From the NCBI GenBank assembly GCA_964593055.1, contig CAZQIG010000006.1:28668-92667 (forward strand): 64,000 nucleotides of DNA. Reading direction: 5' to 3'. How positions within the stretch are numbered: the first letter of the stretch is position 1; each line of letters begins with the position of its first letter. Below the pieces are notes generated by a model. That model searched no databases. It was not told the origin of the DNA and saw only the letters and a list, made by a program, of their open reading frames with translations. Made by a program: the position numbers and the translations under genes. Source of the DNA: an uncultured Erysipelotrichia bacterium (GTDB lineage Bacteria; Bacillota_I; Bacilli_A; JBKEDG01). Below, one piece after another: positions 9,758-48,640 of this stretch.

Positions 9758-9998
9758 TTTATTTTTGAACTAGCCCCAATAATTGGAGAAAAGTTCAAAC
9801 ATAATTAAATTATAATCAGGTAAGTTGTAAACAACTCAATCCTGTCAACGGAGGCTTCACCGCCCTCGTCAGTTGGGACGCCAGAGCCGAAGACTGGCCG
9901 ACCCAAGGTCAAAGTGGATTTTTTAATAAAGGTGATAGACACGAGAATGTTATTCTCGTGTCTTTTTGCGTTCATTAATAATTTAGGAGGGTGAATAA
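9758..9998 (+). promoter_or_regulatory. Left end of the inserted element: a 241-bp leader repeated identically at 38666..38906
   Basis: It starts with a short inverted repeat (TTTTGAAC...GTTCAAA) and a TATAAT box near 9819. An unusually GC-rich segment of about 90 nt follows (9833..9920, roughly 60% GC) and ends in a T-run. A perfect intrinsic terminator lies 30 nt before the RBS of the next gene. Confidence 0.45.
9938..9968 (+). terminator. Attenuator-type intrinsic terminator inside the leader, upstream of the possible replication-initiator gene
   Basis: GACACGAGAAT-gtt-ATTCTCGTGTC is an 11-bp perfect stem followed by TTTTTG. Confidence 0.6.
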
Positions 9999-10877
9999 AT
10001 GAATTATAGAGCCAAAGATAAAAATAATATCTTCATCGAATTTAAACATATGCTAGATTATGAATTATCTGAAGATATTATTAAAGCAAGAATTTTTCAT
10101 AGCAATTTAGGTAATCAAAAATCAACAATCGATGCTAAGTTAAGAAAATATCAATTGATTGATAAATTAAATAGACGACAAGCTGTTAATAATCGAAGTG
10201 CTTATGTCTTTGATGTAATGTTACCGAGAAACTATTTGATAAATAAAAACATTGGTAAGTTAAAAAACTATATTACTGAACTTGTAAATGATTTTAAAAA
10301 TGATCATAACTTAAAATACTACGCTTACTTTATTAAAATAGGTAAAGCACGAATTTTAAGAATTGTTATTTTAAATAGAATAATCGATTTTTCTACTTTA
10401 AAGTTTTATGAAAAAGATGGAAAATTAATCTATGATAAACAGATTGTCTATATTAGTAATAAAATAAGGATTCCACATTTTGCAACTAGAACAAAGGGTT
10501 CAAAAGAAATTTTTCAAGCAACAATTGAAGAATATAAACTATTACTCATTCGCATATTAACGATAAAAGTCATTCAAGTAAATGACTTTATCAAAAAGGT
10601 GAGCTATAAGACATGCGTAAAAACCTATGAAGGATACACACATCTTTTAATTACACATAATTACTATAATCACCTCAAAAAACGGAAAATTAAGGCAATT
10701 AATACTTATATTGGTGCTATTAATGAACACTTGATATTGAACCAGGAACATTCTAAAACAATTATTAGAAATGCAAAAAATAAGATTAAATTCTATAAGG
10801 GGTTTAAAGTGAAAGACTTATTAAAGTTAGAAGCAGAAATAATTATTGAAATTGCTATTATCAAGCAAAAAAATTAA
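9999..10877 (+). CDS. Duplicated 292-aa protein, the first gene of the element; a replication-initiator or regulator role is only a hypothesis
   Basis: It lies directly downstream of the attenuator leader and ahead of parA-parB, the position a plasmid-type rep gene would occupy. A near-identical N-terminal two-thirds copy sits at 38907. I recognise no catalytic motif. Confidence 0.3.
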   Translation: MNYRAKDKNNIFIEFKHMLDYELSEDIIKARIFHSNLGNQKSTIDAKLRKYQLIDKLNRRQAVNNRSAYVFDVMLPRNYLINKNIGKLKNYITELVNDFKNDHNLKYYAYFIKIGKARILRIVILNRIIDFSTLKFYEKDGKLIYDKQIVYISNKIRIPHFATRTKGSKEIFQATIEEYKLLLIRILTIKVIQVNDFIKKVSYKTCVKTYEGYTHLLITHNYYNHLKKRKIKAINTYIGAINEHLILNQEHSKTIIRNAKNKIKFYKGFKVKDLLKLEAEIIIEIAIIKQKN

Positions 10878-10977
10878 AAATTTAATATATGCAAAGAACT
10901 TTGCGTATTTATAGGATTAGTAGGAGCACATTTATGTGTGACAACCTTTCCGCCCATCAAAATAGAAAGTAGGTGAA

Positions 10978-11499
10978 ATGATGAAAACAAAGTACAACTT
11001 TTCTAAATTAGAAGATTTAAAAAGAAGAAATCGAAAGATTTTTAAAATTAAGAGTCATTTAAGAAATAAAATAGTTATTGAATTAGTTGATCCTAGTCAA
11101 TATTTAAAGAAAAAAGGGTATCGAGTAATTCATTTAAACAGTTTTTATAGATTTTTAAACTATTTAGAAGTCCATAAAGATGAACAACTTTTTAAATCTT
11201 TAGGTATTGATAAAACTATTGTTGACTTCTATATTATTTTCAATGGCTTTCCTTTAGAAAATGGCTTTACAGATAAACAACTTCAAGAATTAAAGAAAGT
11301 TAGTGATGAAAAACTTTATACAGTAGATGATTTATGGTTAGAAATTAGAATTAGAGAGAATAACAAATATTTAGCTCCTGAAAAAATTTACATTAAAGTG
11401 TGGGAACAAATTAATCTAGCTTATTATAACTATTTATTGAGCTTAGATTATCAAGATACAGCAATTGGAAAGAATTTGAAGAGGAGGATCTTAAGGTGA
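10978..11499 (+). CDS. Hypothetical protein, paralogue of 39912..40421
   Basis: A 173-aa ORF with shared blocks YRFLNYLEV and LWLEIRIRENN...IYIKVWEQIN. Confidence 0.45.
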   Translation: MMKTKYNFSKLEDLKRRNRKIFKIKSHLRNKIVIELVDPSQYLKKKGYRVIHLNSFYRFLNYLEVHKDEQLFKSLGIDKTIVDFYIIFNGFPLENGFTDKQLQELKKVSDEKLYTVDDLWLEIRIRENNKYLAPEKIYIKVWEQINLAYYNYLLSLDYQDTAIGKNLKRRILR

Positions 11500-11969
11500 A
11501 AGAAGAGTCTAAGCCAAAAACTAAAAGAGAAAAGATGAACCGTAGTTGTCGAAATGTTGAGTATTTAAGAAAAATAATTTCTCAAAAAGAAGTCCGTGAA
11601 TTGACTTCAATTAATGAATTTTGTGAAAAAAATAATCTTAATAAAGAAACTGCACATAGATTTGCAACATATATTGATCCTAAGATAAGAACAAAGGGAT
11701 TTGATTATGGAATTGACTTAGATATTTTAAAATTTTATTTGTATTACATAGGTCACACTAAAAAAGTAGAAAGTACTAAAAGAGCAAGGGAACTCAGAAA
11801 ACTTTCAACTAAAAATACTTATAGTGATAATTTATTATGGATCGAAATTAAAACAATGGATCAAAACAAATCAATTTATTTAGCTAAATCACATCATAAA
11901 ATTACTAAATACATTAATGTTGGATACTATAGATATTTAGTAGAAAGAAAAATAATTAATAAAAAATAG
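11496..11969 (+). CDS. Hypothetical basic protein
   Basis: A 157-aa ORF. A truncated 47-codon relic sits at 40450..40593 (RSCRNVEYLRKIISQKEV versus RSCNIEYVMKRISEKKV). Confidence 0.4.
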   Translation: MKEESKPKTKREKMNRSCRNVEYLRKIISQKEVRELTSINEFCEKNNLNKETAHRFATYIDPKIRTKGFDYGIDLDILKFYLYYIGHTKKVESTKRARELRKLSTKNTYSDNLLWIEIKTMDQNKSIYLAKSHHKITKYINVGYYRYLVERKIINKK

Positions 11970-11984
11970 AGGGAGGATTTAATT

Positions 11985-12755
11985 ATGAAAGTTATAGCTA
12001 TTTACAATTTTAAAGGTGGAGTTGGAAAAACTACCACTACAAAGTTTCTAGCAAAGTATTTTGCTGAAAAGAGAGGAAAAAGAGTTTTACTTGTTGATAT
12101 GGATCCACAAGCAAATTTATCGAGTCAATTTATAATATCAAATGAAACTAATCGGACAACATATCATTTGTTATTAGAAGATAGTGCAAGTTTAAAGAAT
12201 TGTATTTCTAAAACTACGGATAAAAACATAGATATTATCATAAGTGATTTCAACTTATTAAAAGCTAATAATGAATTATTGCAAGAAGCCATTACAAAAC
12301 CACCTGCTGGAAGGTTAGCAAAGAAAATGGTATCAAATGATACCAAAGATTATGATTATATTTTAATTGATTGTCCACCAACAATGGATTTACTTGTGAC
12401 TAATTCTTTAGTGATAACCGATGAAATTATTATTCCAGTTAAAGCTGATAGATATTCAGTAGATGGACTAGAAATGATGTTAGAAAAAATTAATGAGATT
12501 AAAAACTCTTATAATGAAAATTTAAAAATCTCATCTATATTTCTAAATCAATACAAACACACAAACTTACATAAAGAACTATTCACATTACTAAATGAAC
12601 AGTTAGAATATATGAATGCAAATTATATTGGTGATTATTCAATTGTTTCTAGAGACACGGTATCAGATGATACCAAAATTGAAAAACATAAAATAACTGA
12701 ACAGTATGATAAATTATTTTCCTCGATTATGGATGAGATAAATGAATTTAACTAA
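11985..12755 (+). CDS. parA: ParA/Soj-family partition ATPase
   Basis: The deviant Walker A KGGVGKTT is at the N-terminus and D(M)DPQ is present. It is followed by a ParB-like gene. Confidence 0.8.
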   Translation: MKVIAIYNFKGGVGKTTTTKFLAKYFAEKRGKRVLLVDMDPQANLSSQFIISNETNRTTYHLLLEDSASLKNCISKTTDKNIDIIISDFNLLKANNELLQEAITKPPAGRLAKKMVSNDTKDYDYILIDCPPTMDLLVTNSLVITDEIIIPVKADRYSVDGLEMMLEKINEIKNSYNENLKISSIFLNQYKHTNLHKELFTLLNEQLEYMNANYIGDYSIVSRDTVSDDTKIEKHKITEQYDKLFSSIMDEINEFN

Positions 12756-13470
12756 TTTAGAAAATTTGAATAAGAAAATTACCATGAGTAATGAAAAAAC
12801 CATTGGTCGAATAGCAGAAGTAGAAATTAATAAGTTGATTAAGAATCCTATTAATTTTTATGATGAATATTATGATCTGGATAACTTAGTAGCTTCCATT
12901 AAAGAATTTGGGTTAATAGAACCTATTCAAATAACCGCTAACTATCTTGTTATTAGTGGACATAGGAGACTAGAAGCTTGTAAGAGAGCAAAGTTAAATC
13001 AAATTAAGGTTATTTTTGTTGAAAGTGAAGATAAAGAAAAATTAGCTATCAAACTAATTGAAGCTAATCGTCATCGTGAAAAGACATCTGAGGAAAGACA
13101 AAAAGAAATTGCAATTTTAGAAAAATACTATCAAAATTTACAAGCTAAAGGTCTTAAACCTAAAGGTCGAATCAGAACTTTAATTGCCAAAGACTTAGGT
13201 ATATCAGAAGCTACAGTTTCGAGGAACTTAAAAAAGGTATCAAATGATACCAATAACAAAGATAATGGATTAAAGAATTTTAGAAAGTTAGATAAGATAT
13301 TAAGATTATGCAAGAAAGATTTAACAGAAGAGAAAGTAATATCTACACAATCACTCGAAGTGATAATTGATACGTTATTTGAAAATTTAGATCTCAAGCT
13401 TTTAGAACAACTTAATGAAGAACAAAACAATCACAAACAGTTTACGATTGACGATTGTATTACTGAATAA
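12742..13470 (+). CDS. ParB/Srx-domain protein (partition or nuclease-like)
   Basis: A ParB N-terminal domain (IEPIQITANYLVISGHRRLEACKRA), then an HTH region (LIAKDLGISEATVSRNL). Confidence 0.6.
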   Translation: MNLTNLENLNKKITMSNEKTIGRIAEVEINKLIKNPINFYDEYYDLDNLVASIKEFGLIEPIQITANYLVISGHRRLEACKRAKLNQIKVIFVESEDKEKLAIKLIEANRHREKTSEERQKEIAILEKYYQNLQAKGLKPKGRIRTLIAKDLGISEATVSRNLKKVSNDTNNKDNGLKNFRKLDKILRLCKKDLTEEKVISTQSLEVIIDTLFENLDLKLLEQLNEEQNNHKQFTIDDCITE

Positions 13471-13498
13471 TAATAAAATTTCTGTATTCATTGTTGGT

Positions 13499-13546
13499 TG
13501 TATAGCATTGATTACTTTCCCCCTCTATTGTAGTCAATGCTATACA
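13499..13546. repeat. Perfect 13-bp inverted repeat with a 22-bp spacer immediately downstream of parB
   Basis: TGTATAGCATTGA at 13499..13511 pairs with TCAATGCTATACA at 13534..13546. Confidence 0.5.
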
Positions 13547-13598
13547 GCTAATAATGAGTAATGGTTAAAAACTTTAATAGAATGGCGATTAATAAGTA

Positions 13599-14543
13599 TT
13601 ATTTTTGAATATACCATCTATATATTTTTATGCTGAATGTCAAAATGAATGCAAATACAAATAATTGAATAATTGTATCATTCCATAAAATTAAGAAATG
13701 ATAATCAAAAAGTAGCAGTGGTTCATTTTCTAGTTCTATTGCAATAGATATTGCTTTGATTGATATGCTTATTGATGCAAATAAAGCCACAGTGTAGTGG
13801 AATTGTCGAACAAAATCAGTTCTAGTATAAATAAATATGTCACTTTTTCTCTTGTAAAATATTTTTGAGGTCACATTTGACATGTAAGTTTCACCAGGCT
13901 TATATGATTTTGTAAAAACAATTTTTGTTACAACAAATAAGTAGAATACTAAAAAAAATAATGAGCTGAATAAGATTGCATTAAATACATATTTTTCTGC
14001 ATTGTTCAAAATGATAGTTCGGCTTGTTTCTACTACAACGTTTAATTGAGTGAATAATATAAAAGGCAAGAAATAGCCTAGGGATATCAGTACTCCAATT
14101 ATCAAATAATATTCAATATTGAGATTCGTAATATTATTATGTTTGTAGTCTAAATATAGTACTGTTGTAAAGATGGAGATAATAAAAATAAAAACAAATG
14201 CTAAGCCATGCATAGGAGTAACTATTAGTGATGAGAAAATTGAAAAATTAATTTTTAATATTACAAAGCAAATGATTTGAATAATCAATATCCTTATTAT
14301 TTGAAATTTTTCTATTTTTGAATTATAACAAAACCAATATATAAAACTACTTATAGAAGTTGTGAAAGCAATGGAAATTAAGATCATAAAAAAAATTTTT
14401 GGTAAAATAAATTTTTCTGGAATAAAGAAACAAATTATGCATATCATGATGGTAAAGCTGAATCCAACGTGAATTTGAGTTTTGTCACATGAGTGAACAC
14501 TGCTTAGTATTGATTTTTTAGTAATTTCAACTAATTTTCTCAT
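13599..14543 (-). CDS. Polytopic membrane protein, function unknown (the only gene on the - strand inside the element)
   Basis: 314 aa with eight or more hydrophobic helices. Confidence 0.4.
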   Translation of the reverse strand: MRKLVEITKKSILSSVHSCDKTQIHVGFSFTIMICIICFFIPEKFILPKIFFMILISIAFTTSISSFIYWFCYNSKIEKFQIIRILIIQIICFVILKINFSIFSSLIVTPMHGLAFVFIFIISIFTTVLYLDYKHNNITNLNIEYYLIIGVLISLGYFLPFILFTQLNVVVETSRTIILNNAEKYVFNAILFSSLFFLVFYLFVVTKIVFTKSYKPGETYMSNVTSKIFYKRKSDIFIYTRTDFVRQFHYTVALFASISISIKAISIAIELENEPLLLFDYHFLILWNDTIIQLFVFAFILTFSIKIYRWYIQK

Positions 14544-14819: not shown

Positions 14820-15695
14820 GTGATACTTATGAATATTATTAGAAAAATATTATTGATATTAATATCAATATGTTCAATAATAAGTATTTCTACACTTATT
14901 TATATTAGTGCATTTCAAAAGGTAAAAATAGGATTTGTGGCAGTAGAACAAACTGTTCAAATTCGTGATTATAAAAATTATAATACTTATGCTGATTTTA
15001 TTGAAGAATTAGATTTTGATGAGTTGATGTTAGCATACAGTATTGAAGAAGATAGTTATGATTACATTAACTTAGCAATTTCTTTTGATCGAGAAGTAAA
15101 TTTTTATAATCATAATCATCCTGAATACTCGATAGATGAGTTCTTAGAAAAGTTTGGCGATCAAAAAATTCAAGATGGAGCATTAGTTCATTTTGTTTAC
15201 TATAAAGAAATAGAAAGTGAACAAGTGGAAATTATAAAATATGAAAGTTTTGAAGAAAAAGATGAGACACTTGATAGCGGTAGTACAGAAATCAAAGTTG
15301 AAGGTATTGATGGTAAAACTATTACACCTAAGATAGAAGTTTATCGTAATGGAAAATTAATAGATACTATTATAGGAGAAACAGAAAGAATTGAACCAGT
15401 TAATGAAATTGTTTTGGTGGGAACTAAATTGTCAAGAAACTATAGTAGTTCATCAACTTCAAGTAATAGTAGCTCAAGTCACTCAACTACTAATAATTCT
15501 TCAAATGACTCTAATAATACTTCTCCATCCAATGAAGCTACGAAACCTGTTGAAAAAACTTGGTACTTACGTGTGACACCTTTTGGAGGAACTCAATATG
15601 TTGATTCTACGTATACTAGTGAAAGCTCATGCATATCTGCTGGTAAAGCATGGGGAAATAGCAATTCCGGTTCGTGGGGTTGCAAAGATTGGTAA
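14820..15695 (+). CDS. Secreted or membrane-anchored protein with a G5-like domain and a Ser/Asn-rich linker
   Basis: The N-terminus has a TM/signal segment. A G5-type block follows (IKVEGIDGKTITPKIEVYRNGKLIDTIIGETERIEPVNEIVLVGTK), then an S/N/T low-complexity linker, then a Cys-containing C-terminal module. Confidence 0.45.
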   Translation: MILMNIIRKILLILISICSIISISTLIYISAFQKVKIGFVAVEQTVQIRDYKNYNTYADFIEELDFDELMLAYSIEEDSYDYINLAISFDREVNFYNHNHPEYSIDEFLEKFGDQKIQDGALVHFVYYKEIESEQVEIIKYESFEEKDETLDSGSTEIKVEGIDGKTITPKIEVYRNGKLIDTIIGETERIEPVNEIVLVGTKLSRNYSSSSTSSNSSSSHSTTNNSSNDSNNTSPSNEATKPVEKTWYLRVTPFGGTQYVDSTYTSESSCISAGKAWGNSNSGSWGCKDW

Positions 15696-15751: not shown

Positions 15752-17683
15752 ATGAAAAAACAAGTTAAATACTTAGGAATTATTGTAATGCTTTTTGGAT
15801 TATTAAATCTAGAAAGTATTTTTTATGTAAAAAAAATTGAGGCACAAAACTTTGATACATATAAGATACCTAATTATAGTCAAGAAATAATTGATTTAGA
15901 AAAAGAAGAAGAAGATGTATATTACGCCAATGGTGAATTAAATGCATCTCCTGGGGAAATTCATTCTACAGAAGTTGAGTTACAAAACTTTGTAGATAAA
16001 TATGCTGATACTGATAATAATGGCACAGTAATTATTAAAAATGCAACTAGAGCAGGTAATACTTTAACAGTTGTATTTGAAGGTGATTACGTAGGGACAG
16101 GAAATGTTTCAAATTTTGGATTGGTTTATAAATTTAATCAATATACTAGCGGTAGGACAGCATACGCTAGATATTATATTGATGGTGTCTACTCACTATG
16201 TATTGAACCAGGAAGAAGTGTTAGTCCTGGAACATCATATAATGTTAGTGCAGTAAATGGAGATTTAGTAGTAGATTGGAGTGCAGGATACTTTGCTAGT
16301 TATCATTCTAAAACATCGGTATTAACTGCTAATGAATCTAAAAGATTGTCGAGAATGGTCTATTATGCAAGTACTAAAGTAGATTTATCTAAAAGTAGTG
16401 ATTTTGAAAAAGCATTACGTTTAATAGCTACACAGTATACAACTGATATAGATGTTACTTTTACATACAATAACAGTGAATATAGCAATATTGAAGATGA
16501 AGTGTCTATTTTACATAAGTATGCTGATGAATTTGAAATTGCACCTGTAATTGGTAATATGCCTAATGAGTTTTTAGTAGGAGAAACAATAAATTTAAAT
16601 ATTAACAATGCTAGTCAATGGACTCATATTAAAAGTACCGATAGTAACTTGAAGCTAGAAAGAACTAGTGATGGTATAAAAATAACACCTTTAAATAAAA
16701 GTGCTAATCTTTCACAAATAAAATTTACCAAAGGAAATGAAATTTCATCAAAATATAAGTTGTTTAGTAATAGTAATTCTCAAGATATGATTGCTTATAC
16801 TGAGTCAGATCCATTTAATTATTTTATGGATATAAATGTTAGGGAGGCTAGTGGAAGTCTAGAAGTTTATAAGACTGATACTATAGGTAATAAATTAGAA
16901 GGAGTTGAATTTCAAATACTAGATGGATTTTATAATGATGTAAGTAATTTAGTAACAAATGAAGAAGGATATGCAAGATTAGATAAGCTTCCACTAGGAA
17001 TTTATTATTTAGGTGAAATAAAGACATTAGATAATTTGATACTAAATAAAAATTTATTTCCTTTTGAGATAGATGAGGATGGTGCAAAGATTGTTATTAA
17101 TGTCTCGAATACAGAATATGCTAATTTAACAATATTTAAAACTGATGCAAAAACAAAGGAAAAGCTAGAAGGAGCCAAATTAAAACTAAAGTATTTTGAA
17201 GATGAAACAGGTAATTATGAATCATATTACCATGGACTAAGTAATGAATATTTGAGTGCCAATGCGATAGCATACGTTTTAACAGGTGAGTATGATGATA
17301 ATAGTTATCACATCATTGAAGATGAAACAGGAGTATTTCTTGTTGAAGATTCTACTGGAAACAAAGAACACATTGACAAGTCATATTTTGATAAAAAATA
17401 TGATAATGAATATATAACAACAGTTGATGGAATAAACCTCAACATACCTATTGGCTTATATCAAGTTTGTGAGATTAAAGCTCCAAATGGTTATTTATTG
17501 AGAAATGATTGTCTGGAATTTGAAGTTTTGGAAGGAGAAAATGAAATCAAGATTGAATTTGATAACTACGAGATAGAAACATTAGTTAAAACAGGTAGTA
17601 GAAATGAATTATGTATTTATTTTCTTGTAATAATAGTTTTCTTATTAATGAAGGCGGTAAATCGTTTTTACAAGACATGCTAA
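15752..17683 (+). CDS. Surface adhesin-like protein with two CnaB-type domains and a C-terminal sorting-signal-like tail
   Basis: The N-terminus is a signal peptide. Two CnaB-fold blocks are present (LEVYKTDTIGNKLEGVEFQILDG...LPLGIYYLGEIKTLDN and LTIFKTDAKTKEKLEGAKLKLK...YQVCEIKAPNGYLL). The C-terminus reads LVKTGS, then a hydrophobic stretch, then a basic tail (KAVNRFYK). Confidence 0.55.
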   Translation: MKKQVKYLGIIVMLFGLLNLESIFYVKKIEAQNFDTYKIPNYSQEIIDLEKEEEDVYYANGELNASPGEIHSTEVELQNFVDKYADTDNNGTVIIKNATRAGNTLTVVFEGDYVGTGNVSNFGLVYKFNQYTSGRTAYARYYIDGVYSLCIEPGRSVSPGTSYNVSAVNGDLVVDWSAGYFASYHSKTSVLTANESKRLSRMVYYASTKVDLSKSSDFEKALRLIATQYTTDIDVTFTYNNSEYSNIEDEVSILHKYADEFEIAPVIGNMPNEFLVGETINLNINNASQWTHIKSTDSNLKLERTSDGIKITPLNKSANLSQIKFTKGNEISSKYKLFSNSNSQDMIAYTESDPFNYFMDINVREASGSLEVYKTDTIGNKLEGVEFQILDGFYNDVSNLVTNEEGYARLDKLPLGIYYLGEIKTLDNLILNKNLFPFEIDEDGAKIVINVSNTEYANLTIFKTDAKTKEKLEGAKLKLKYFEDETGNYESYYHGLSNEYLSANAIAYVLTGEYDDNSYHIIEDETGVFLVEDSTGNKEHIDKSYFDKKYDNEYITTVDGINLNIPIGLYQVCEIKAPNGYLLRNDCLEFEVLEGENEIKIEFDNYEIETLVKTGSRNELCIYFLVIIVFLLMKAVNRFYKTC

Positions 17684-17731: not shown

Positions 17732-18814
17732 ATGTTTTATTTCATTATTTTTGTTATAATATTAATAGATATTAATATTAATAATGGAGAGGGTTTAATG
17801 AAAGCAATTGAGTGGTTAAAAAATCTTAGCATATTAAAGAGAATATCATTAGCAATAATTACCGTAGTTGGACTTATCGCTGGACTTCTTGTTAATACAT
17901 ACGGTGAAAGGGTAGTCAACTATTTTGACAATCTATGTGAAATAGAAGTAATAGCTATAGATGATCTCGTTGATGTTTACAGTTATGGTTATACAGATGC
18001 ATATTTTAAAACTGAAGAAGATAGTGTAGTTTTTATTCAAGAGACTAAAATTCCAACACCGTATATTAAAATTGAAAGTAGCAAAAATAAATGTGTTGCA
18101 GATGCCTTAGTAACTTCCTACACAAAAAATTATGAACTTGATGTACATGTTAAAGATAACGAATTTAATAAACTTGGATTTCCTTATAGTGAGAATAAAG
18201 GTGTTGGATTTACTGAGAGAAATTTAGTCACTTACTCAGATAATGATGAAAGAATGGTTATAGAAAGCGTAGTAAATGAGATGGATAGAGGTGGAACTGC
18301 TGCTTTGAATCTATATGAAGAAGAAAATATCGCCAATAGTAAAGAATGGTGTAAAGAGAAAGAATGTTATGTGGGTATATATAATACAGCCTATGATTCT
18401 GAAATATATTATGAAAGTCCTATTACTACTTTTGCTTATAATGTTCTTGAAATTCAGTTAAATAATAGAGATGATAAATATAGGAAGTATGTTGTCTTCC
18501 ATATTAACAATACTGAAACTAAGTATTCAAGAGTTTTTGTGGAAAATATTATGACTTATAATTCATCAACACTATTAAGTATAATTGAAGAAGTACAAGA
18601 AGACATTGACACGCATGAATTATGTGGAAATACAATTCAAAATGTACTTACAAATTCTTATTATAATTACTGTAACTTTTTTTATGATTCAGATATGAAA
18701 GAAGGGGTGTTATTAAGTAATTATTTGAATGAAAACCATAGTGGTGACTTTGAAATAAACTCAGAATATTATTCCGAATATAATAATACTTTATTGGAAA
18801 GGATAGAAGAATGA
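17732..18814 (+). CDS. Membrane-anchored extracytoplasmic protein (candidate T4SS accessory)
   Basis: An N-terminal TM helix is followed by a 300-aa soluble domain. I see no recognisable motif. Confidence 0.4.
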   Translation: MFYFIIFVIILIDININNGEGLMKAIEWLKNLSILKRISLAIITVVGLIAGLLVNTYGERVVNYFDNLCEIEVIAIDDLVDVYSYGYTDAYFKTEEDSVVFIQETKIPTPYIKIESSKNKCVADALVTSYTKNYELDVHVKDNEFNKLGFPYSENKGVGFTERNLVTYSDNDERMVIESVVNEMDRGGTAALNLYEEENIANSKEWCKEKECYVGIYNTAYDSEIYYESPITTFAYNVLEIQLNNRDDKYRKYVVFHINNTETKYSRVFVENIMTYNSSTLLSIIEEVQEDIDTHELCGNTIQNVLTNSYYNYCNFFYDSDMKEGVLLSNYLNENHSGDFEINSEYYSEYNNTLLERIEE

Positions 18815-18865
18815 GCTTTTATATAAGAGCTATTCAATTGACGGCTTAATAGAAGAGTAATTTAA

Positions 18866-18890
18866 GGAGAGCTAATTAGCTCTTTTTTAT
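18866..18890 (+). terminator. Intrinsic terminator
   Basis: AGAGCTAATTAGCTCT palindrome followed by TTTTTT. Confidence 0.5.
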
Positions 18891-18908
18891 TGTATTAAGG
18901 AGAAAAGA

Positions 18909-19956: not shown

Positions 19957-19966
19957 GGAGGAAAAG

Positions 19967-26067: not shown

Positions 26068-26184
26068 ATTAAAAAGATAGATTAGAAATATTGTAAAAAA
26101 GTCAGCTTAATAATTTAAATGTATTTTACACTACCTATTATTATGATAAAATTGTATTATAAAGAACTTAAAGGGGAAATGATA

Positions 26185-27381: not shown

Positions 27382-27409
27382 ATACAAAAAACTTTTGAGG
27401 GGGTTTAAT

Positions 27410-31488: not shown

Positions 31489-31685
31489 AATATAGGGGTG
31501 TAATTCAAGTAATAATTCGTGTATCTTTTCAAAGAAATGTAAAAGTAACTGAATTACACCTCAAAGATTAATAATAAATACTACTATATAACATTTTAAA
31601 TATTAAGATAATATCAAAAAAAACTTATTCATTCATTTATAAAATAACAACCTTTGTCTTTATCTTCTAAATTATTGAATAAGCA

Positions 31686-31757
31686 GTAACTAAATAACTA
31701 TACACGCATTAGTTACAAAATGGTTACAATGTAACTAAAATGTATTTATAATGTAAC
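31686..31757. repeat. GTAAC repeat cluster (candidate oriT or operator)
   Basis: GTAACTAA at 31686 pairs with TTAGTTAC at 31709 as an inverted repeat. GTTACAaTGTAAC at 31723 is a palindrome. AATGTAAC is repeated at 31750. Confidence 0.3.
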
Positions 31758-31871
31758 GAGGAAGATTTTGATTAAGTTTGCTGAATTAGTAAGTATTGTT
31801 CTAAGATATAAAAATATGTTATTATAAATGTATACAATGCGCTTATAAAATTAATAGTAGGGGGAATTCTA

Positions 31872-33338
31872 GTGGATGAAATGATTAATAGTGTAATGAT
31901 TTATAAAATTTGCGGAAGAGATTTAAACGATATTGAGGATATTTTACGTCGAGACAACTACGAAAAAACAGATTATGAATTCAATATCGAGGGTAATGAT
32001 TTATATATTTATCAAAAGCATATTACTCAACAAAATGATTATGCATTACCTTTTTTAAGTAATAATGTTAGTATTAAAAGGTATGTTTATATTATTTTGA
32101 TTCCAGATTTAGATAATGATAAAAACTTCTACTGGTTTAGAAGAGGGAGTGATAGGTCAAGGATAGATAGTTTTAAAAATAGCAATTTTGCATTTCATTA
32201 TCTTGCAAACTGTAGAGATCATGGAGAATATAATGTAGTAAGTAGTGGCAAAATAGAGTTTTCAACATTTTCGGGAGAATCTAGAACTTCTATTATCAAA
32301 GATAAAGATATGACTAAATTAAGTGATATTAAAAGTGAATTAAATACGTATAAAGAAAGTATAGATGATTTAGTATTGAAGGTGAAAAAAAATTCACAAA
32401 TATATGATGACTTGTGTATGGATAAAACTAGAGAAGTAAGAATTTCAAATGGAATAAAGGTCTATTTAGATATGAGTTCTGATGAATGTTTTAGAAAAGC
32501 TTTTAAAATCTGTAAAAATATTTCCAAGAGGCAAAGAAATGGTGAGAAAACAAACGTGTTTAGAAAAATTAGAAAATCAAATGTTGTTATTGATAGTGAA
32601 ATAAAGGTGATTAATTTGTTTGAACTCAAGAAATCGAGTGATTTAGATATAGAGTATGTTGAGAATTCTGCAAATATTTCAAGTGATAAAAATTATTTTG
32701 GTATTTTTTCAAAAGATGACATTTACTATTACATTAATATAAAGCAAGAAAAATATAAGATGGATTTTAATGAAGAAAAGCTTTCAGAAAAACTCAATAC
32801 GGAAGAGGAAAAAAGAATTTTAGAGTTGTTAAATGTGAATGAATACAAAAACGAAGCAGATTACATAGGTAAAATAAAAAATGTCAATAATGAGGATTGT
32901 TTGGTTCATGTTTTTCATCCTAAACACTATTGTCATACTAGCAAATCAAAATTTGAGTTGTGTGATGTATTATTATATGATAAGTCAAATGATAATTTAT
33001 ATTTAATTTTTATCAAGTATGAATTTTTAGCAAAAAGTTCTGAGGTTTTTTGGCAATCAACATTTGTCAAAGAATTTATATTAAAAGATAAACTAAGTCA
33101 AGATAAATTAGAGCGTTATTATGATAATGCTGGGTTTCGTTATTCTGATTATCGAAAAAAACTTTTTTTAGACAAAGCAAACTTTGTTAATATAATATTG
33201 CCTAGAGGTAACAACAGGAGTACAGATAATTTAGATCATGTCTATACATTAATTAAGCATATCGAAGGTAGAGAAAGACTTAAAATCATAGTTCCTGAGA
33301 CTACAAGTAATGGGAATAGCACAAGGATTGAAATTTAA
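31872..33338 (+). CDS. Hypothetical 488-aa protein
   Basis: A long ORF with a GGGGAA RBS. I recognise no motif. Confidence 0.4.
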   Translation: MDEMINSVMIYKICGRDLNDIEDILRRDNYEKTDYEFNIEGNDLYIYQKHITQQNDYALPFLSNNVSIKRYVYIILIPDLDNDKNFYWFRRGSDRSRIDSFKNSNFAFHYLANCRDHGEYNVVSSGKIEFSTFSGESRTSIIKDKDMTKLSDIKSELNTYKESIDDLVLKVKKNSQIYDDLCMDKTREVRISNGIKVYLDMSSDECFRKAFKICKNISKRQRNGEKTNVFRKIRKSNVVIDSEIKVINLFELKKSSDLDIEYVENSANISSDKNYFGIFSKDDIYYYINIKQEKYKMDFNEEKLSEKLNTEEEKRILELLNVNEYKNEADYIGKIKNVNNEDCLVHVFHPKHYCHTSKSKFELCDVLLYDKSNDNLYLIFIKYEFLAKSSEVFWQSTFVKEFILKDKLSQDKLERYYDNAGFRYSDYRKKLFLDKANFVNIILPRGNNRSTDNLDHVYTLIKHIEGRERLKIIVPETTSNGNSTRIEI

Positions 33339-33395: not shown

Positions 33396-33818
33396 ATGAG
33401 AAAGAATATTCTTTTAGTTTTAATGTTTTTCATAACTATAAATTTGGTAGGATGCTTTAAATCAAATATTAAAGAAGAAGATGTAAAAAAAGAAATTGAG
33501 AATCAATTACAGCTAGAAAACATTGAATACGAATATAAAGAATTTGGTGATTTAAATTTCGAGTATTGGATTAGAGCATTTGCTGAGGAAAATGTTTCAT
33601 TAAGATATGAAGATTTTAATAGTGGTGGTTCATATGAAATGAATGAAGGAATTATATTTTATCTTGAAATAAATGATGATGATACACTAGCTCAAATGGA
33701 AGAAGCTTATTCTAAGTTTGAGTATGATCATCCAATGTGTTATAAAGATAGCTTTGCTGTTTATGTACAAGAGGGTGACTTCAGTAAATTAGTGGAAGAG
33801 TTATGTGATAATCTTTAA
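33396..33818 (+). CDS. Lipoprotein
   Basis: Signal peptide with the lipobox LVGC. Confidence 0.5.
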   Translation: MRKNILLVLMFFITINLVGCFKSNIKEEDVKKEIENQLQLENIEYEYKEFGDLNFEYWIRAFAEENVSLRYEDFNSGGSYEMNEGIIFYLEINDDDTLAQMEEAYSKFEYDHPMCYKDSFAVYVQEGDFSKLVEELCDNL

Positions 33819-33860
33819 AATAATACTTTTTAAGTAGCGATGATTTATATTTTAGAAAGT

Positions 33861-34002: not shown

Positions 34003-35163
34003 ATGAAATTAAAAAAAGTTGCTGCATATGTAAGAGTATCAACAAATGAACAAGCTAAAAAAGGCTTTTCTATCGAAGGACAAAAAAGAGATATTGTTGA
34101 TTATTGTAATTATAAGCTTAAAGAGGGGTATAATATAGATTTTTTTGTAGATGAAGGAAAAAGTGCAAAAACTATGAATCGTAAGTCTTTAAAACAACTT
34201 ATGAATGAAGTTAATAATTATGATTATGTAGTTGCATGGAAAATTGATCGTATTGGTCGTGGAGTACTAAATAATGAAATATTTAGAAAAGAGGTTACTG
34301 GTAGAGGTGCTTGTTTATTGTTTGTATTAGACAATATTGATTTATCGACAGATTCAGGAGTTATGCAGTATCAAATTATATCAGCTGTAAGTGAAAATGA
34401 AATTGCAAACACAAGTACCAGGACAAAAATGGGATTGCTTCAAAAAGCACGTAAAGGTGAATATCCATATGGGAATAAGCCTCCAATTGGTTTTTCTAAA
34501 GATAAACATCATCGACTATATTACAATAATGAAATAGAAATAATTAGAGAACTTTATGACTTGTATGTTAACTACGGTTATAGTTTTGAGTTTATAGCCT
34601 ATTTATTTAGAGATAAGTATCCACAGTACAAGTGGGGGAAAAATTACCCTTGTGAATTATTGAAAAAAACAATTTATAGAGGATATTTAGAAGTGCAGGG
34701 AGAAAGGTTTGATTTGGTTGATCCTTTTTTTAGTGAAGAAGAAATTGAAAAACTAAAGTTTTTAGAAAATAGGAGTAGAGTTATAACTGATAACTTCTAT
34801 AAATATAAAGGTCTTATTTTTTATAAAAATCAAGAGATGTGTGCTTATACTAAAAATAAAAAAATGAAAGACGGCAAGATGAAAAAGTATGTTTATTATT
34901 ATGTTCGAATTAATGGTAAGAAAGTTATAAACATAGCTGAGAGTGTTATTGATAAAGAGGTATTTAAATATGAAAGAAGTGTTTTTCAAAGTAATATTGA
35001 TGCTAGACAAAAATTAATAAATAATTTAGAAATATTACTAAAACAAGGAAGGATTACCAATAAAAAGTATGATTATTTAGTGTCTCAAAAATCACATCGA
35101 CATTTTTCCATATCAAGAATAAATGTGATGGATAAAAATAGGATAATTATTGATTGGACTTAA
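34003..35163 (+). CDS. Large serine recombinase (integrase), a short 386-aa version
   Basis: The N-terminal resolvase catalytic domain has the AAYVRVSTNEQ nucleophile motif. A recombinase domain follows (YPYGNKPPIGF...KTIYRGY), with a degenerate zinc-ribbon region. Confidence 0.75.
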   Translation: MKLKKVAAYVRVSTNEQAKKGFSIEGQKRDIVDYCNYKLKEGYNIDFFVDEGKSAKTMNRKSLKQLMNEVNNYDYVVAWKIDRIGRGVLNNEIFRKEVTGRGACLLFVLDNIDLSTDSGVMQYQIISAVSENEIANTSTRTKMGLLQKARKGEYPYGNKPPIGFSKDKHHRLYYNNEIEIIRELYDLYVNYGYSFEFIAYLFRDKYPQYKWGKNYPCELLKKTIYRGYLEVQGERFDLVDPFFSEEEIEKLKFLENRSRVITDNFYKYKGLIFYKNQEMCAYTKNKKMKDGKMKKYVYYYVRINGKKVINIAESVIDKEVFKYERSVFQSNIDARQKLINNLEILLKQGRITNKKYDYLVSQKSHRHFSISRINVMDKNRIIIDWT

Positions 35164-35292: not shown

Positions 35293-38200
35293 TTGAGTAT
35301 ATTTCATATAAAAGATTGCGTTATTGAAGATTTTGATTCAAAAGATTTTTTTAGTGGTAAAAAATATTCTAATACTTTGGCAAAAGCTATTGAAAATGAT
35401 GAAATAACATCAATTGCAGTATATGGTAAATGGGGAGTTGGAAAAACTACAATTGTAAGAAATGCATTAATTAATCAGAAAAAATATTCCGACAAGAATA
35501 TAGTTACTTATAATGCTTGGAAGTACAGTAAACATGATTTTATGCGTGATTTTTTGATTGAATGCTCAAAAAGAATTGAAGGTGAAGAAAAAGCAGCTAC
35601 TAGAGAAGAAAGATACTATTCTAATCAAGTAGATCAAATAGAAGCACAAAGCTTATTTGATAGTTCATTGGGAGTATGGATAAGAAAGAATTGGAAGTCC
35701 TTGAGTATATTTGTGGTTATTTATGTTATTGTAGTTGTTGCAACAATAGTAATTAATAACTATAAACCCAATTTGTATAGGGTTGGTGATATTCTTATTC
35801 CGCTAACAACAATTTTCTTTTCGTTGCTTATACCTGTCATAATCGCTAAGACAATTACTGTAAAAGCTGTGGATAAGATTTTTTCACCAGAACAATTTGA
35901 AAGACAGTTTAAAGAAATAATAGGTAAAAAAGAAGTCTTAATATTTATTGATGATATTGATAGATGTGAAGTAGACGATATGAAAACAACATTAGATACA
36001 ATTAAAACTTTTATTATTGATAATGAAAAACATAGTAGTAATGTAAAATTTATTATATCTATCGATCCAAATGTCATGTTGCCAAAATTAAAAAATACAT
36101 CAAGCGATTATTTTTTCAAAATATTTAATCATGTACTTTTAATAAAAAATTATGTAAATGTAGATTATGAAAAAATGAGAAAAGAAATTTTGAGTATGAT
36201 TAAGCAGTCAGAATATAAGTCGGTTGTTGATGATGGTTTAAAACTGGCGATTAATTATTATATTGATACACCTAGAAAATTAAAAATGTTTGCCAATGAG
36301 TTTATTAATGAGTTATATAATTATAAAATCGATGATATTAAAAGTTTTGGTGAATCATTCGCAAAAATTATTATTCTGAAAAATGAATATCCGGAGTTTT
36401 ACGATTGTTTATCAAAAAACTATAATAGAAATATAAAAAAAATGAATGACCAAATTGAAGATTATGAACGAGAAAGAAATCAAGAAGAGATATCCTTACC
36501 ATATTCTGAAGGGCTATTAAAATTTTTAAGTGAAACAAAAGATGTATCTTTGGAATGTTTTTCACTATACGCTTTAGGTATTAGTTATAGTCAATATATG
36601 CTTCAGGAATTTATTAAGAATCCAATCCCAAAAAATGCAATTGATAAGAAATCATCAGTTGATTTTGAATCAAACTTCTCTTTAATAAAAAAATCAATAA
36701 GAGATAATATAGTATACCCACTATCAGTTCGTAAGGAATATCAACCAGGGGATAGATTTACAAAGGTGATATTTTTATTGACAGAACTTGAAGATAAACT
36801 AAGTGAGGATAGTTTGAAATTGATTAAAGCGGAAATAATCAAAGTGTGGGATGAATTATTTAGAGATGAAAAATTGTTTCGTGAGATAGAAGATGATGAA
36901 GAATATTTTGAAGTTGTAGATTTTAGTTTTTTAAATGATACTATAAGAGAATATATGCTTAAACTTTTAGAAAAAAATTCTAATATTATTAATGATGCTA
37001 TTGTAAATAAGATATTAAGTTCTATTGATTCTTCAGAGAAAAAATCTATAGGATTTGATTTGAACTTCTTTTCATTTATTGATTTTTTTAAAAAACAAGA
37101 TGAACTTACTGAAAAAGCATTTATAAATATTATAAATAGTGCTATGAAAGATAACTTTGTGGTGTGTTTCAAACGCTTATCTTATTTATTTAGTAATGGA
37201 AATAAGTGTAATGAAAAGACATATGTGAAGAAGGTATTTGATAATTTAGGTGACGAAAAATTAGATGAAGAATATAAAAGTATTTCTACAAAATATATTG
37301 CAAATAGATATTCTGATGATAGGGGTCAAAATAATTTGATAATGGGATTAAACTCTATTTTTCCTCTTAAGGATGAAGATACTATTAACGAGTATATGTT
37401 TATTTTTGAGGTAATTGAGCGAATTATTCGTGTAAATACCTCAGATTATGAAAAAATAAAAGAATTAATATTAAATTTAATTGATTATTTTGATGTAGAC
37501 GAAACAATTGATAAATTGATTGTTAAAATACTTTTATCAGTAAAGTATTCGAAGAATTTTGATTCAAGTGATTATGAAGGTGTATTGAATCAAGTAGCTG
37601 ATAAATTTAATACTGCAAATTACGGAAGTGCTACTTTGAGCCGATACATTTCTCAATTAAATGAAGCAGAATTTAATAATTTTTTAAACTATAGTATAGA
37701 AGAGCACTATTATAATAATAGTAATATTATTTCTCAAAACAAAGGAATATTTGTTAATTTTCTAAAAGACAAAAATGTATTTTGTACATTAGCTAAGACT
37801 ATTGACAAAAATGAAGGTAGCATTACTTCTGATTTGATTGAAGATTATGGGTTTAGTTTAAAGTTTCATATTGATTCAATTAAATATTTAATAAGTACAG
37901 ATGTTGTTGGATACATTTATTTGCTTTCACCTTTTAGTTTTGGTGATATTAAGGATGTTAAATTAAACATTAGTGAAAATAATTATAATCAAATTGATTT
38001 TTCGCTCATAAAAGGCGATGCATTGTGGAAAAAAATAAAAGAAATTTACAAAAAGATTTCAGAAGAAATGTATAGTGATATCAAAGCCAATGAAGGTTCT
38101 GATATAAACATATTCCATGGATCTGTAAATAAATATATTGAATTTATAAAATTTTACTACAATAAACTGAATGTTGAAAATAAAAAAATTGATCACAGAT

Positions 38201-38382
38201 TATTATGGAAACATTTATTAGAAATTGAGGGAATTTATCGTATTAAAGGTGACATTAATCTGTATAAAAGGTATTTACAAGAAGACCAAGAATTTAGAAA
38301 TGTAATTAAAAATGGAAACTATAAAAAAAATCTAAATAAAAGTTCACTTAAAGAAACAATAAAATATTTAATTAATGATTAA
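35293..38382 (+). CDS. KAP-family P-loop NTPase (1029 aa)
   Basis: Walker A is IAVYGKWGVGKTT. Two TM helices are inserted in the P-loop domain, between the Walker A and Walker B motifs. The KAP signature FIDDIDRCE (DDxDRC) follows. Confidence 0.7.
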   Translation: MSIFHIKDCVIEDFDSKDFFSGKKYSNTLAKAIENDEITSIAVYGKWGVGKTTIVRNALINQKKYSDKNIVTYNAWKYSKHDFMRDFLIECSKRIEGEEKAATREERYYSNQVDQIEAQSLFDSSLGVWIRKNWKSLSIFVVIYVIVVVATIVINNYKPNLYRVGDILIPLTTIFFSLLIPVIIAKTITVKAVDKIFSPEQFERQFKEIIGKKEVLIFIDDIDRCEVDDMKTTLDTIKTFIIDNEKHSSNVKFIISIDPNVMLPKLKNTSSDYFFKIFNHVLLIKNYVNVDYEKMRKEILSMIKQSEYKSVVDDGLKLAINYYIDTPRKLKMFANEFINELYNYKIDDIKSFGESFAKIIILKNEYPEFYDCLSKNYNRNIKKMNDQIEDYERERNQEEISLPYSEGLLKFLSETKDVSLECFSLYALGISYSQYMLQEFIKNPIPKNAIDKKSSVDFESNFSLIKKSIRDNIVYPLSVRKEYQPGDRFTKVIFLLTELEDKLSEDSLKLIKAEIIKVWDELFRDEKLFREIEDDEEYFEVVDFSFLNDTIREYMLKLLEKNSNIINDAIVNKILSSIDSSEKKSIGFDLNFFSFIDFFKKQDELTEKAFINIINSAMKDNFVVCFKRLSYLFSNGNKCNEKTYVKKVFDNLGDEKLDEEYKSISTKYIANRYSDDRGQNNLIMGLNSIFPLKDEDTINEYMFIFEVIERIIRVNTSDYEKIKELILNLIDYFDVDETIDKLIVKILLSVKYSKNFDSSDYEGVLNQVADKFNTANYGSATLSRYISQLNEAEFNNFLNYSIEEHYYNNSNIISQNKGIFVNFLKDKNVFCTLAKTIDKNEGSITSDLIEDYGFSLKFHIDSIKYLISTDVVGYIYLLSPFSFGDIKDVKLNISENNYNQIDFSLIKGDALWKKIKEIYKKISEEMYSDIKANEGSDINIFHGSVNKYIEFIKFYYNKLNVENKKIDHRLLWKHLLEIEGIYRIKGDINLYKRYLQEDQEFRNVIKNGNYKKNLNKSSLKETIKYLIND

Positions 38383-38449
38383 TGAATTTTTAGACTAAAG
38401 AGGTATAATAACAGGTATAAAATAATTTTTCAAATTTCTATTTGTTATT

Positions 38450-38461
38450 AAAAAGTTCGAC
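38450..38461. repeat. AAAAAGTTCGAC half-site, recurring about 100 nt upstream of each small-RNA promoter
   Basis: Full palindromes of the same word occur at 45049..45076 and 56502..56530. A half-site occurs at 51155..51168. Confidence 0.3.
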
Positions 38462-38530
38462 ACTTAAATTTAATTAATAGAATATATTTATTGTTGAAAT
38501 AGCTAAATTATAACTACTTATATAAAAAAC

Positions 38531-38665
38531 TTGCAATAGTTTTCGGGATATGATATCATCAAGTTAATGAATAACACGTCAAGCGTGTCTATTTATTAAA
38601 AAATCCACAATACGCTACCAGTTTGCCTATCTATAGTTCGTAGTTAGTCAACGTGACTGGTACCA
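38531..38665 (+). ncRNA. Copy A of the conserved promoter plus structured small RNA / leader; its 3' terminator is replaced by the inserted element
   Basis: TTGCAA, then 17 nt, then TATCAT, then ATG exactly 8 nt later (MNNTSSVSIY, then stop). A hairpin ACACG/CGTGT follows, then CCAGT...ACTGG around an inner 7-bp stem, ending ...ACTGGTACCA at 38665. Confidence 0.45.
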
Positions 38666-48639: not shown

Positions 48640-48640
48640 A

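Follow-up and report, generated by a model that had tools for sequence, protein, structure and literature searches.

The 64,000-nucleotide stretch analyzed here (hereafter the window), from contig CAZQIG010000006.1 of an uncultured Erysipelotrichia bacterium, most probably carries a single integrative conjugative element (ICE) of 28,908 bp, termed E1, which extends from 9752/9758 to 38659/38665 at the 3' end of tRNA-Leu(UAG) and represents a rare family with a Gram-positive transfer apparatus of the Tcp/Tn916-like (MPF_FA) type. The evidence supports an apparently intact ICE of a known general kind, equipped with an MPF_FA-type apparatus, a MOBC-like relaxase and a serine recombinase. Two features that we infer could be new in kind: a leader and small RNA (sRNA)-like unit arranged across the attachment (att) site, and a short serine recombinase that acts at a tRNA 3' end. 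A previous interpretation made from the letters alone (the sequence-only reading) had described an ICE of about 29 kb at tRNA-Leu, within 9758-38665; its coordinates were essentially right, and the proposal is borne out by the 28,908-bp unit, by genes confirmed with profile hidden Markov models (HMMs) and by collinear relatives. The window is AT-rich (~26% GC), with nearly all genes on the plus strand. An ORF (open reading frame) list places 25 of 26 ORFs between 9758 and 38382 on that strand, and the assertion that all genes are co-directional must be amended for the remaining one (13599-14543, minus strand), which is called as a gene in other assemblies too. Features are collected in Table 1.

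Homologues of E1 proteins proved very rare in searches. A backbone in the same order, with different cargo, was recovered in metagenome contigs (labeled L010-L016), in two 2.0-Mb chromosomes (L099, which is CP136953.1, "Mollicutes bacterium LVI A0039", and L100) and in two further contigs (L101 and L104). By tblastn, the conserved and collinear genes encode ParA, ParB, the adhesin, two small transmembrane (TM) proteins, VirB4, a VirB6-like protein, an M23 hydrolase, a G5 protein, the coupling protein, the relaxase (44-46% identity) and the serine recombinase (35%), and all 12 backbone genes of E1 are full length and collinear with those of relatives. The genes for AbiH, PIN, ORF180, ORF488, the lipoprotein, the KAP NTPase, ORF314 and ORF360 are not conserved in relatives, where their slots hold other genes. 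Judged by gene content and order, conserved genes interspersed with variable slots are the backbone-plus-cargo pattern of a mobile element. Comparison with relatives, proposed in the sequence-only reading as a check, yielded this collinear backbone and retrieved no empty site.

The gene inventory supports a complete conjugation set in E1: besides a VirB4-type ATPase and a coupling protein, it includes a putative, divergent relaxase of the MOBC/Replic_Relax class, a VirB6-like protein and a cell-wall hydrolase. Pfam searches upheld the sequence-only calls of parA, parB, a CnaB adhesin, VirB4-like and FtsK/VirD4-like ATPases, an M23 hydrolase, a G5 protein (of which E1 encodes two), AbiH-like, PIN-like and KAP NTPase genes and a serine recombinase. 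The suggested VirB6-like protein has no Pfam match, and its identification stands on homology to the protein following VirB4 in all relatives (E 3e-24 to 3e-53). The VirB4-type ATPase shares 27-30% identity with the syntenic ATPases of relatives, and in four of them it is syntenic with the VirB6-like protein, the hydrolase and the small TM proteins; ORF107 and ORF140 are kept upstream of VirB4 in L010, L101 and L104. Its nearest counterparts in the plasmid database are Bacillus megaplasmid ATPases, at 22% identity. The coupling protein contains the Walker A motif GQTGSGKS and is 41-44% identical to the syntenic protein in L010 and L099. ORF285, with no Pfam match and no significant similarity (E 0.22) to the TcpC-matching protein of L104, agrees with TcpC only in position and N-terminal TM topology.

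Because the L104 protein encoded immediately ahead of the small TM proteins and VirB4 matches Pfam TcpC (PF12642), at the position expected, we group the apparatus with Gram-positive systems of the Tcp/Tn916 type. Its order (TcpC-position protein, small TM proteins, AAA_10 ATPase, VirB6-like protein, hydrolase, FtsK-like coupling protein) is that of the Tcp locus of pCW3 of Clostridium perfringens and of the Tn916, ICEBs1 and ICESt3 modules; a TcpA-type coupling protein and a peptidoglycan hydrolase both lie in the module, and a surface adhesin is encoded beside it. E1 departs from these systems in showing at most 22% identity to anything in the plasmid database, in having as hydrolase an M23 protein followed by a G5 protein, and in apparently integrating by a serine recombinase at a tRNA end. 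Mycoplasma ICEs such as ICEA and ICEM, which inhabit related Mollicutes-like hosts, carry a DDE transposase and insert without site specificity; the VirB4 of E1 matches the NCBIfam model for the Mbov_0397 Mycoplasma ICE ATPase weakly (5.4e-07, 27.7 bits against a 590-bit cut-off), and Pfam finds no DDE transposase in E1. Gene content also leads us to reject, as having next to no chance of being correct, the view that the region is a prophage or phage-plasmid. AbiH, PIN and KAP genes and serine recombinases do occur on prophages too, and the relaxase candidate has a weak NCBIfam match to a small terminase (E 0.0048, far below the cut-off), but no ORF matches a capsid, portal, tail or large-terminase family in Pfam or PHROGs, and a full set of type IV secretion genes is present.

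The relaxase candidate is divergent. Alone, the 288-aa protein scores below the gathering threshold for Replic_Relax, PF13814 (E 0.081; 13.4 bits against 25.3), so that of the HMM confirmations sought for the sequence-only reading those for VirB4 and the coupling protein were obtained directly and that for a Replic_Relax relaxase holds only through homologues. An exhaustive HMMER search found 21 of these among 1.84 billion representatives, and 14 of the 22 aligned family members (the query, itself without a family match, plus the 21 homologues) match PF13814, the best at 2.1e-14. In the alignment P157, E175 and E177 are invariant and D158, R178 and K189 nearly so. An AlphaFold2 (AF2) model, with a predicted local distance difference test score (pLDDT) of 90.7, shows an N-terminal winged helix-turn-helix (wHTH) and a PD-(D/E)XK core that, on model and alignment, carries conserved acidic residues; its top PDB matches are FokI, MspJI and PadR, with weak E-values of 5e-3 and above. 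PF13814 constitutes the MobC class of CONJscan (PMC5357655) and falls within the PD-(D/E)XK superfamily (PMC3424549). Because its homologues match Replic_Relax and its model combines a winged helix with a restriction-endonuclease-like fold, we call the protein a candidate divergent MOBC-like relaxase. It shares its predicted architecture with MOBC relaxases, of which TraX of pAD1 is an example, and is unlike typical members in its low profile score and in an immediate family of only 21 representatives. It likewise sets E1 apart from pCW3, which has a tyrosine-recombinase-like relaxase, and from Tn916, ICEBs1 and ICESt3, which use MobT (PMC5704250). The 383-nt intergenic region that follows, with its inverted repeats (Table 1), is a candidate origin of transfer (oriT) that we infer from the sequence. 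In L099, positions 21700-22325 directly after the relaxase gene contain a hairpin of GGTAACTCCGAA repeats and at least nine tandem 37-nt units, a possible oriT or iteron region of which the counterpart in the window has only inverted repeats.

The ends of E1 are defined by a direct repeat. Positions 9752-10587 are identical over 836 nt (100%) to positions 38660-39495, at a spacing of 28,908, after which identity drops abruptly to ~75%. The repeat opens with GTACCA, the final 6 nt of tRNA-Leu (9752-9757), with which the unit begins and which leaves the tRNA intact; the second GTACCA (38660-38665) marks the junction with a further element, E2. The sequence-only reading had held that the right boundary could not be fixed from the sequence and had guessed at 38.4-38.67 kb, ahead of a second leader copy: the repeat does fix it, at 38660, within the range guessed, and both leader copies are real, each bearing a 12-bp intrinsic terminator hairpin (9937-9963 and 38845-38871). 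Sequence differences between the tRNA and the right-end unit extend as far as GTACCA and cease beyond it, which places the crossover responsible for joining E1 to the tRNA at that hexamer or just to its right. Left of tRNA-Leu lies ordinary chromosome with infC-rpmI-rplT, ltaS, an M17 aminopeptidase gene (pepA) and genes for a Y-family polymerase and YolD. This last pair (IMS polymerase plus YolD-like gene, 8045-9593), directly upstream of tRNA-Leu, is of a kind often borne by mobile elements, and the true left chromosomal edge may be further upstream. E1 presents a serine recombinase, a chromosomal left flank and direct repeats 28,908 apart.

The second leader copy is taken as the left end of E2, a decayed relative, since diverged E1-like genes and then a decayed stretch follow it: the genes that come next in E1 have diverged counterparts here in ORF292', ORF169' and a truncated ORF157', and beyond them non-coding, decayed sequence (40594-41100), which truncates E2, runs to ~41100. 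A fragment of an IS3-type transposase discerned by eye at 40.6-41.0 kb (minus strand, N-terminal part) was not confirmed by Pfam and was downgraded to part of this stretch. The right end of E1 consists of a unit of ~215 nt upstream of 38660, with a promoter, a hairpin and a minihelix whose end reads GGTACCA, which recurs at 45.1-45.3 kb, at 51.3-51.4 kb and partially at 56.6 kb, and which is assigned to E1 because it shares a perfect 17-nt complement with the type-A leader at the left end. The 20-mer GTCAACGTGACTGGTACCAT recurs in direct orientation at 38647, 45264 and 51373, with none expected by chance. A second serine-recombinase gene (57008-58180), full length and 46% identical to the E1 enzyme, contains in-frame TAA (57275) and TGA (57647) codons and, as read with genetic code 11, is a predicted pseudogene, which is one more sign that remains of related elements have accumulated on the right of E1. 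The TGA sits exactly where the E1 recombinase has Trp, an observation of note given the Mollicutes-like relatives. E1 is shown by these features to be the tRNA-proximal member of a tandem array, followed by the E2 left end and then by three stand-alone right-end units and the recombinase pseudogene. The single-element picture of the sequence-only reading accordingly stands for E1 as a unit; it had overlooked that the second leader opens a decayed element and that the right end contains a promoter and sRNA-like unit.

This arrangement looks like tandem accretion, having direct att-like repeats (the 20-nt site three times plus the tRNA end), the E2 remnant and the recombinase pseudogene. Accretion of ICEs with decayed relatives (cis-mobilizable elements, CIMEs) has been described for streptococci (PMC5704250), and the ICESt1/ICESt3 family and the tRNA-Lys islands of Streptococcus agalactiae similarly place a functional-looking ICE beside decayed relatives at one tRNA gene, with direct att-like repeats between them. 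Those systems employ tyrosine integrases, unlike E1, and in E1/E2 the repeat has been homogenized over 836 nt, in a mosaic that differs by strain. GCA_019826165.1 carries leader type A next to the tRNA and type B in the copy that follows E1 (L006, L102); in GCA_019826185.1 type B, together with a type-B patch reaching 10136, occupies the tRNA-proximal copy, and the E1 body comes next. The type-B allele (31 differences in 270 nt, window 9867-10136 against L018/L005 and L102) thus occupies the proximal or the distal copy according to strain. Because strains differ in leader type at each copy, the two repeats must recombine, and the differences indicate gene conversion or reciprocal crossover between the two elements. 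Since the repeats recombine in other strains, we regard the perfect 836-nt repeat as the product of such an exchange between two originally different elements and not as an insertion footprint. An exact look-up of the ORF292' protein, as a marker of the reciprocal recombinant in other strains, returned no record.

The array admits of a larger mobile unit than E1, namely the whole stretch between tRNA-Leu and the last att-like site (51392), or one still longer, moving as a composite by cis-mobilization. Four direct GTACCA-containing sites (9752, 38660, 45278 and 51387) would permit this, and tandem CIME-ICE transfer is documented for streptococcal elements (PMC5704250). We nevertheless give it a slim chance: transfer genes occur in E1 only, the cognate pair of unit and leader brackets E1 alone, and the distal segments have no backbone genes in common. 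The island to the right of E1 (41159-56465 and 58606-63596) contains accessory operons typical of the production of, and immunity to, peptide bacteriocins or ribosomally synthesized and post-translationally modified peptides, with ABC transporters, DUF6365, a Peptidase_C92-like protein, DUF2712 with ABC components, two radical SAM enzymes (one SPASM) and a methyltransferase.

The 386-aa serine recombinase is the only recombinase gene found in E1; among the ORFs at 9.7-38.7 kb, Pfam detected neither a tyrosine integrase (Phage_integrase), as would typify a tRNA island, nor a DDE transposase. Its resolvase catalytic domain has the nucleophile serine motif (AYVRVSTNEQ), and both this YVRVSTxEQ signature and its standing as sole recombinase recall TndX of Tn5397, TnpX of Tn4451 and CcrB/CcrC of SCCmec. 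The catalytic domain is nearest to CcrB/CcrC (NCBIfam, N-terminal similarity) and to that of the TP901-1 integrase (best PDB match). Typical large serine recombinases have 450-700 aa; the E1 enzyme differs from the TndX, TnpX and Ccr systems in its length, in a Recombinase domain (PF07508) below threshold (0.011; 16.4 bits against a 21.1 cut-off) and in its C-terminal region, where no zinc-ribbon match was obtained and only one Cys is seen by eye, so that a CxxC zinc ribbon seems absent. Its size is conserved both in the 57-kb pseudogene and in a 35%-identical homologue of 392 aa close to the right end of L010. The recombinase would presumably integrate and excise E1 at GTACCA sites. When dyad symmetry around GGTACC, expected of serine-integrase att sites, was sought, only a downstream hairpin (38671-38706) was symmetric.

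A different origin of the repeat is conceivable, in which E1 is an integrated conjugative plasmid: a circular replicon maintained by ParA/ParB would have entered by a single homologous (Campbell) crossover with the E2 left end, the recombinase serving merely as a multimer resolvase. The partition genes and a possible replication gene behind an attenuator-type leader would fit such a replicon, as would the small recombinase; a perfect flanking repeat of 836 nt is far longer than any att core, and the left copy of GCA_019826185.1 (leader B and patch B, then E1 body) is the expected product of a crossover within 10137-10587. We judge this origin unlikely. All family members of determinable location are chromosomal (L099, L100); the recombinase is kept near the element end in L010 and in its catalytic domain most resembles such large serine integrases as TP901-1 and CcrB; and the repeat begins exactly at a GTACCA common to the tRNA end and three further units in direct orientation. 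Searches of Pfam, NCBIfam, PHROGs and PDB recognized no Rep family, with ORF292, ORF173 and ORF157 all lacking matches, and the original joining of some family element to the tRNA end must in any case have been non-homologous.

Several observations weigh against E1 as a mobile ICE. Composition fails to distinguish it from its flanks: the comparison of GC skew and k-mers recommended in the sequence-only reading was made and did not discriminate (GC 26.0 against 27.0%, tetranucleotide r = 0.97, GC skew likewise). Every available assembly of the host species carries E1 at the same site, and neither an unoccupied site nor a circular junction was found, the host species being absent from the 185,579 GTDB species genomes scanned. 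The flanking M17 peptidase, used as a GTDB query for the empty site, retrieved only relatives of at most 43% identity (Bacillaceae) without usable synteny; the predicted junction sequence gave 0 matches in a metagenome scan, and a metagenome scan with the recombinase alignment reached only distant serine recombinases, at most 35% identical over >100 residues and mostly in the catalytic domain. The sole documented event is thus recombination between the flanking repeats. To these points are added the relaxase score and the short, apparently zinc-ribbon-free recombinase described above, the lack of an identified oriT beyond the candidate region, and a first gene (ORF292) of no recognizable function. 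Elements with serine recombinases, moreover, usually insert within genes, tRNA 3' ends being typical of tyrosine integrases (PMC5704250), whereas the apparent target of E1 is a tRNA 3' end and the tRNA is intact.

Some of these findings would suit an E1 that is a fixed island, a remnant derived from an ICE, no longer mobile and kept for its cargo. Its presence at one site in every species assembly, its fully ameliorated composition and its demonstrably decayed neighbors all agree with this. We consider it improbable in view of 12 of 12 backbone genes being full length and collinear with relatives, the intact flanking repeats, and the differences in leader type among strains, which indicate ongoing recombination. 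An intact ICE at tRNA-Leu thus remains the preferred interpretation.

The sequences at the two ends of E1 suggest how its excision might be coupled to expression. The leader, 240 nt between tRNA-Leu and ORF292, has a GC-rich core conspicuous in a 26%-GC genome, and its terminator lies ~35 nt ahead of the ORF292 start. The leader hairpin of type B differs from that of type A by a double compensatory change (GAC/GTC to GTG/CAC, in other strains), and the minihelix of the right-end unit shows a compensatory change in the 51.3-kb copy. A 34%-identical ORF292 homologue from another sample (L017) also has a U-rich segment and terminator ahead of its ribosome-binding site. In the right-end unit, CGTGTCTA followed by TTTATTAAAAAATCCAC (38584-38608) is complementary to GTGGATTTTTTAATAAA, a 5-nt bulge and TAGACACG in the leader; the pairing spans 17 bp and a further 8 bp and takes in the 5' half of the terminator stem. 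Compared with shuffled controls, the fused 351-nt RNA has far more structure (z = -7.2), and in a transcript cut before the 3' half of the terminator the minimum-energy fold is a long-range antiterminator helix with the terminator arm sequestered. Cognate pairs (leader A with unit A, leader B with the 56.6-kb unit) share a perfect 17 nt, and non-cognate pairs 9-11 nt. Within the sequence examined, units occur only inside the island, and the 45.2- and 51.3-kb copies resemble stand-alone sRNA genes in that each bears a terminator and leaves its seed unpaired. Three such units were delineated, at 45125-45345 (type A), 51265-51470 (type C) and 56577-56858 (type B). All three combine a promoter and a hairpin with a variable "seed" of 17 nt and a terminator of their own, and the first two add a minihelix ending ACCA; every one heads a different accessory operon.

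The complementarity of leader and right-end unit suggests antitermination coupled to excision. We propose tentatively, as a possibility well short of an even chance, that in this ICE family the att site lies within a riboregulator split in two. Its right half would be a promoter and an sRNA-like module of ~100 nt, in which a hairpin is combined with a specificity segment of 17 nt and a tRNA-like minihelix ending ACCA; its left half would be the target leader, whose terminator blocks the first gene. While E1 is integrated, ORF292 would be read from the tRNA promoter and then terminated, tRNA-Leu occupying the position of the minihelix. In the life cycle that the preferred reading implies, recombination between the direct repeats, either site-specific at GTACCA by the serine recombinase or RecA-dependent across the 836-bp repeat, would release a 28,908-bp circle and so bring the promoter and sRNA-like unit of the right end directly before the leader and ORF292. 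The 25-nt complementary segment would then sequester the 5' half of the leader terminator, turning ORF292 on only after excision, when the module can pair with the leader; alternatively pairing would occur in trans from stand-alone sRNA copies. The relaxase would nick oriT, the coupling protein and type IV secretion system would transfer the strand, and the recombinase would re-insert E1 at tRNA-Leu or at the att-like site of a resident relative.

Against this proposal, the terminator fold of the full-length leader is 9 kcal/mol more stable than the antiterminator fold. Whole-unit RNA duplex energies did not separate cognate from non-cognate pairs for leader B; seed complementarity alone does so. 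Searches of Rfam at gathering and permissive thresholds with both leader copies and the unit returned nothing but the tRNA. The paired segments might alternatively be binding sites for an element-specific DNA-binding protein, which would likewise account for the co-variation of leader and unit. The rep genes of pT181, pIP501 and pAMbeta1 are under antisense-RNA or attenuation control, and transcription of Tn916 depends on circularization, a promoter at its end reading across the joint only in the circle. E1 resembles these in its terminator just upstream of the first gene, in the proposed RNA-RNA pairing and in a promoter reading across the circle joint. It differs from rep-gene attenuation in that the pairing partner is a sense-strand upstream segment or an sRNA rather than a countertranscript and would prevent termination, and in the presence within the array of stand-alone copies whose "specificity" segments differ (types A, B and C).

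Table 1. Features of E1 and its borders in the window
Feature	Position	Strand	Evidence and remarks
tRNA-Leu(UAG), apparent integration target	9674-9757	+	ARAGORN; Rfam RF00005, 55.8 bits; only tRNA gene in window
Left-end leader, type A	9758-9998	+	hairpin 9769-9798; GC-rich structured core ~9845-9912; complementary 17-nt segment 9914-9930; terminator 9937-9963
ORF292, first E1 gene	9999-10877	+	no family match
ORF173 and ORF157, paralogue pair	10978-11499, 11496-11969	+	28% mutual identity; no family matches
ParA	11985-12755	+	Pfam AAA_31 1.4e-51; 42% identity in L099
ParB	12742-13470	+	Pfam ParB_N 5.4e-10; 29% identity in L099
ORF314, 314-aa polytopic membrane protein, cargo	13599-14543	-	gene call in other assemblies; no homologue in relatives
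G5-domain protein	14820-15695	+	Pfam G5 1.9e-08
SpaA/CnaB-type adhesin	15752-17683	+	Pfam SpaA 2.4e-27; C-terminal LVKTG-like anchor and TM segment
ORF360, ORF66, ORF285 and small TM proteins ORF107 and ORF140	17732-20709	+	ORF285 in TcpC/VirB8 position
VirB4/TcpF-type conjugation ATPase	20666-22987	+	Pfam AAA_10 8.3e-18
VirB6/TcpH-like polytopic membrane protein	22962-24743	+	no Pfam match
M23 peptidoglycan hydrolase	24740-25303	+	Pfam Peptidase_M23 1.3e-19
Second G5 protein	25324-26067	+	Pfam 4.5e-15
Cargo slot 1: AbiH-like	26119-27381	+	Pfam AbiH 1e-17
Cargo slot 1: PIN-like	27395-27919	+	Pfam PIN_8 4.9e-08
Cargo slot 1: ORF180	27987-28529	+	
FtsK/HerA-type (TcpA-like) coupling protein	28584-30632	+	Pfam DUF87 8e-07, TraG-D_C 5.2e-05, FtsK_SpoIIIE weak
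Divergent MOBC-type (Replic_Relax) relaxase candidate, 288 aa	30622-31488	+	wHTH and PD-(D/E)XK domain
383-nt intergenic region, candidate oriT	31489-31871		inverted repeats 31497-31507/31550-31560 and 31624-31647/31660-31683
Cargo slot 2: ORF488	31872-33338	+	no family matches; not conserved in relatives
Cargo slot 2: 140-aa lipoprotein	33396-33818	+	no family matches; not conserved in relatives
386-aa serine recombinase, presumed integrase/excisionase	34003-35163	+	Pfam Resolvase PF00239 2.9e-29
Cargo slot 3: 1029-aa KAP-family P-loop NTPase	35293-38382	+	Pfam KAP_NTPase 8.1e-22; absent from L010
Right-end unit, type A	38450-38665	+	promoter 38531-38559; hairpin 38574-38588; leader-complementary segment 38584-38608; minihelix 38617-38661 ending ACCA
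Left end of decayed related element E2	38666-40593	+	leader copy; ORF292' 38907-39785; ORF169' 39912-40421; truncated ORF157 homologue 40432-40593

The remaining genes of E1 comprise its left-end set, surface proteins and cargo. The sequence-only reading had called ORF292 initiator-like; we dropped the label of replication initiator, as Pfam, NCBIfam, PHROGs and PDB yielded no match and the AF2 model (pLDDT 47) is unusable. Its homologues form only two clusters among 5.8 billion proteins. ORF173 is 48% identical by tblastn to ORF169' of E2, and the ORF173/ORF157 pair is kept at the left end of both elements, in E1 upstream of ParA and ParB. A 31-nt imperfect inverted repeat (13485-13560; 84% complementary) sits where parB and ORF314 converge and may be a bidirectional terminator or a parS-like site. 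The adhesin occupies an equivalent position in L099, L101 and L104, and the succession of M23 and G5 genes recurs in L010 and L099. PADLOC assigned no defense system to the cargo genes: those of slot 1, which other genes fill in relatives, had no match, and the KAP NTPase gave only weak matches to QatA and PifA.

E1 documents an intact-looking family of conjugative elements in a barely sampled, AT-rich, Mollicutes-like lineage, where almost nothing matches reference plasmids or ICEs and where standard profile thresholds would miss both its relaxase and its first gene. The locus is a clean natural case of tandem accretion with gene conversion between adjacent elements, and, if its presumed mode of integration is true, E1 would exemplify a serine recombinase that uses a tRNA 3' end. 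Were the split leader and sRNA not functional, E1 would be an unremarkable ICE carrying commonplace cargo (Abi, PIN and KAP genes). If they are functional, gene expression in an integrated element would be tied to excision by a novel mechanism: the element would be able to detect that it had been excised, and specificity types A, B and C would act as element-specific keys, with cross-talk or immunity between tandem relatives.

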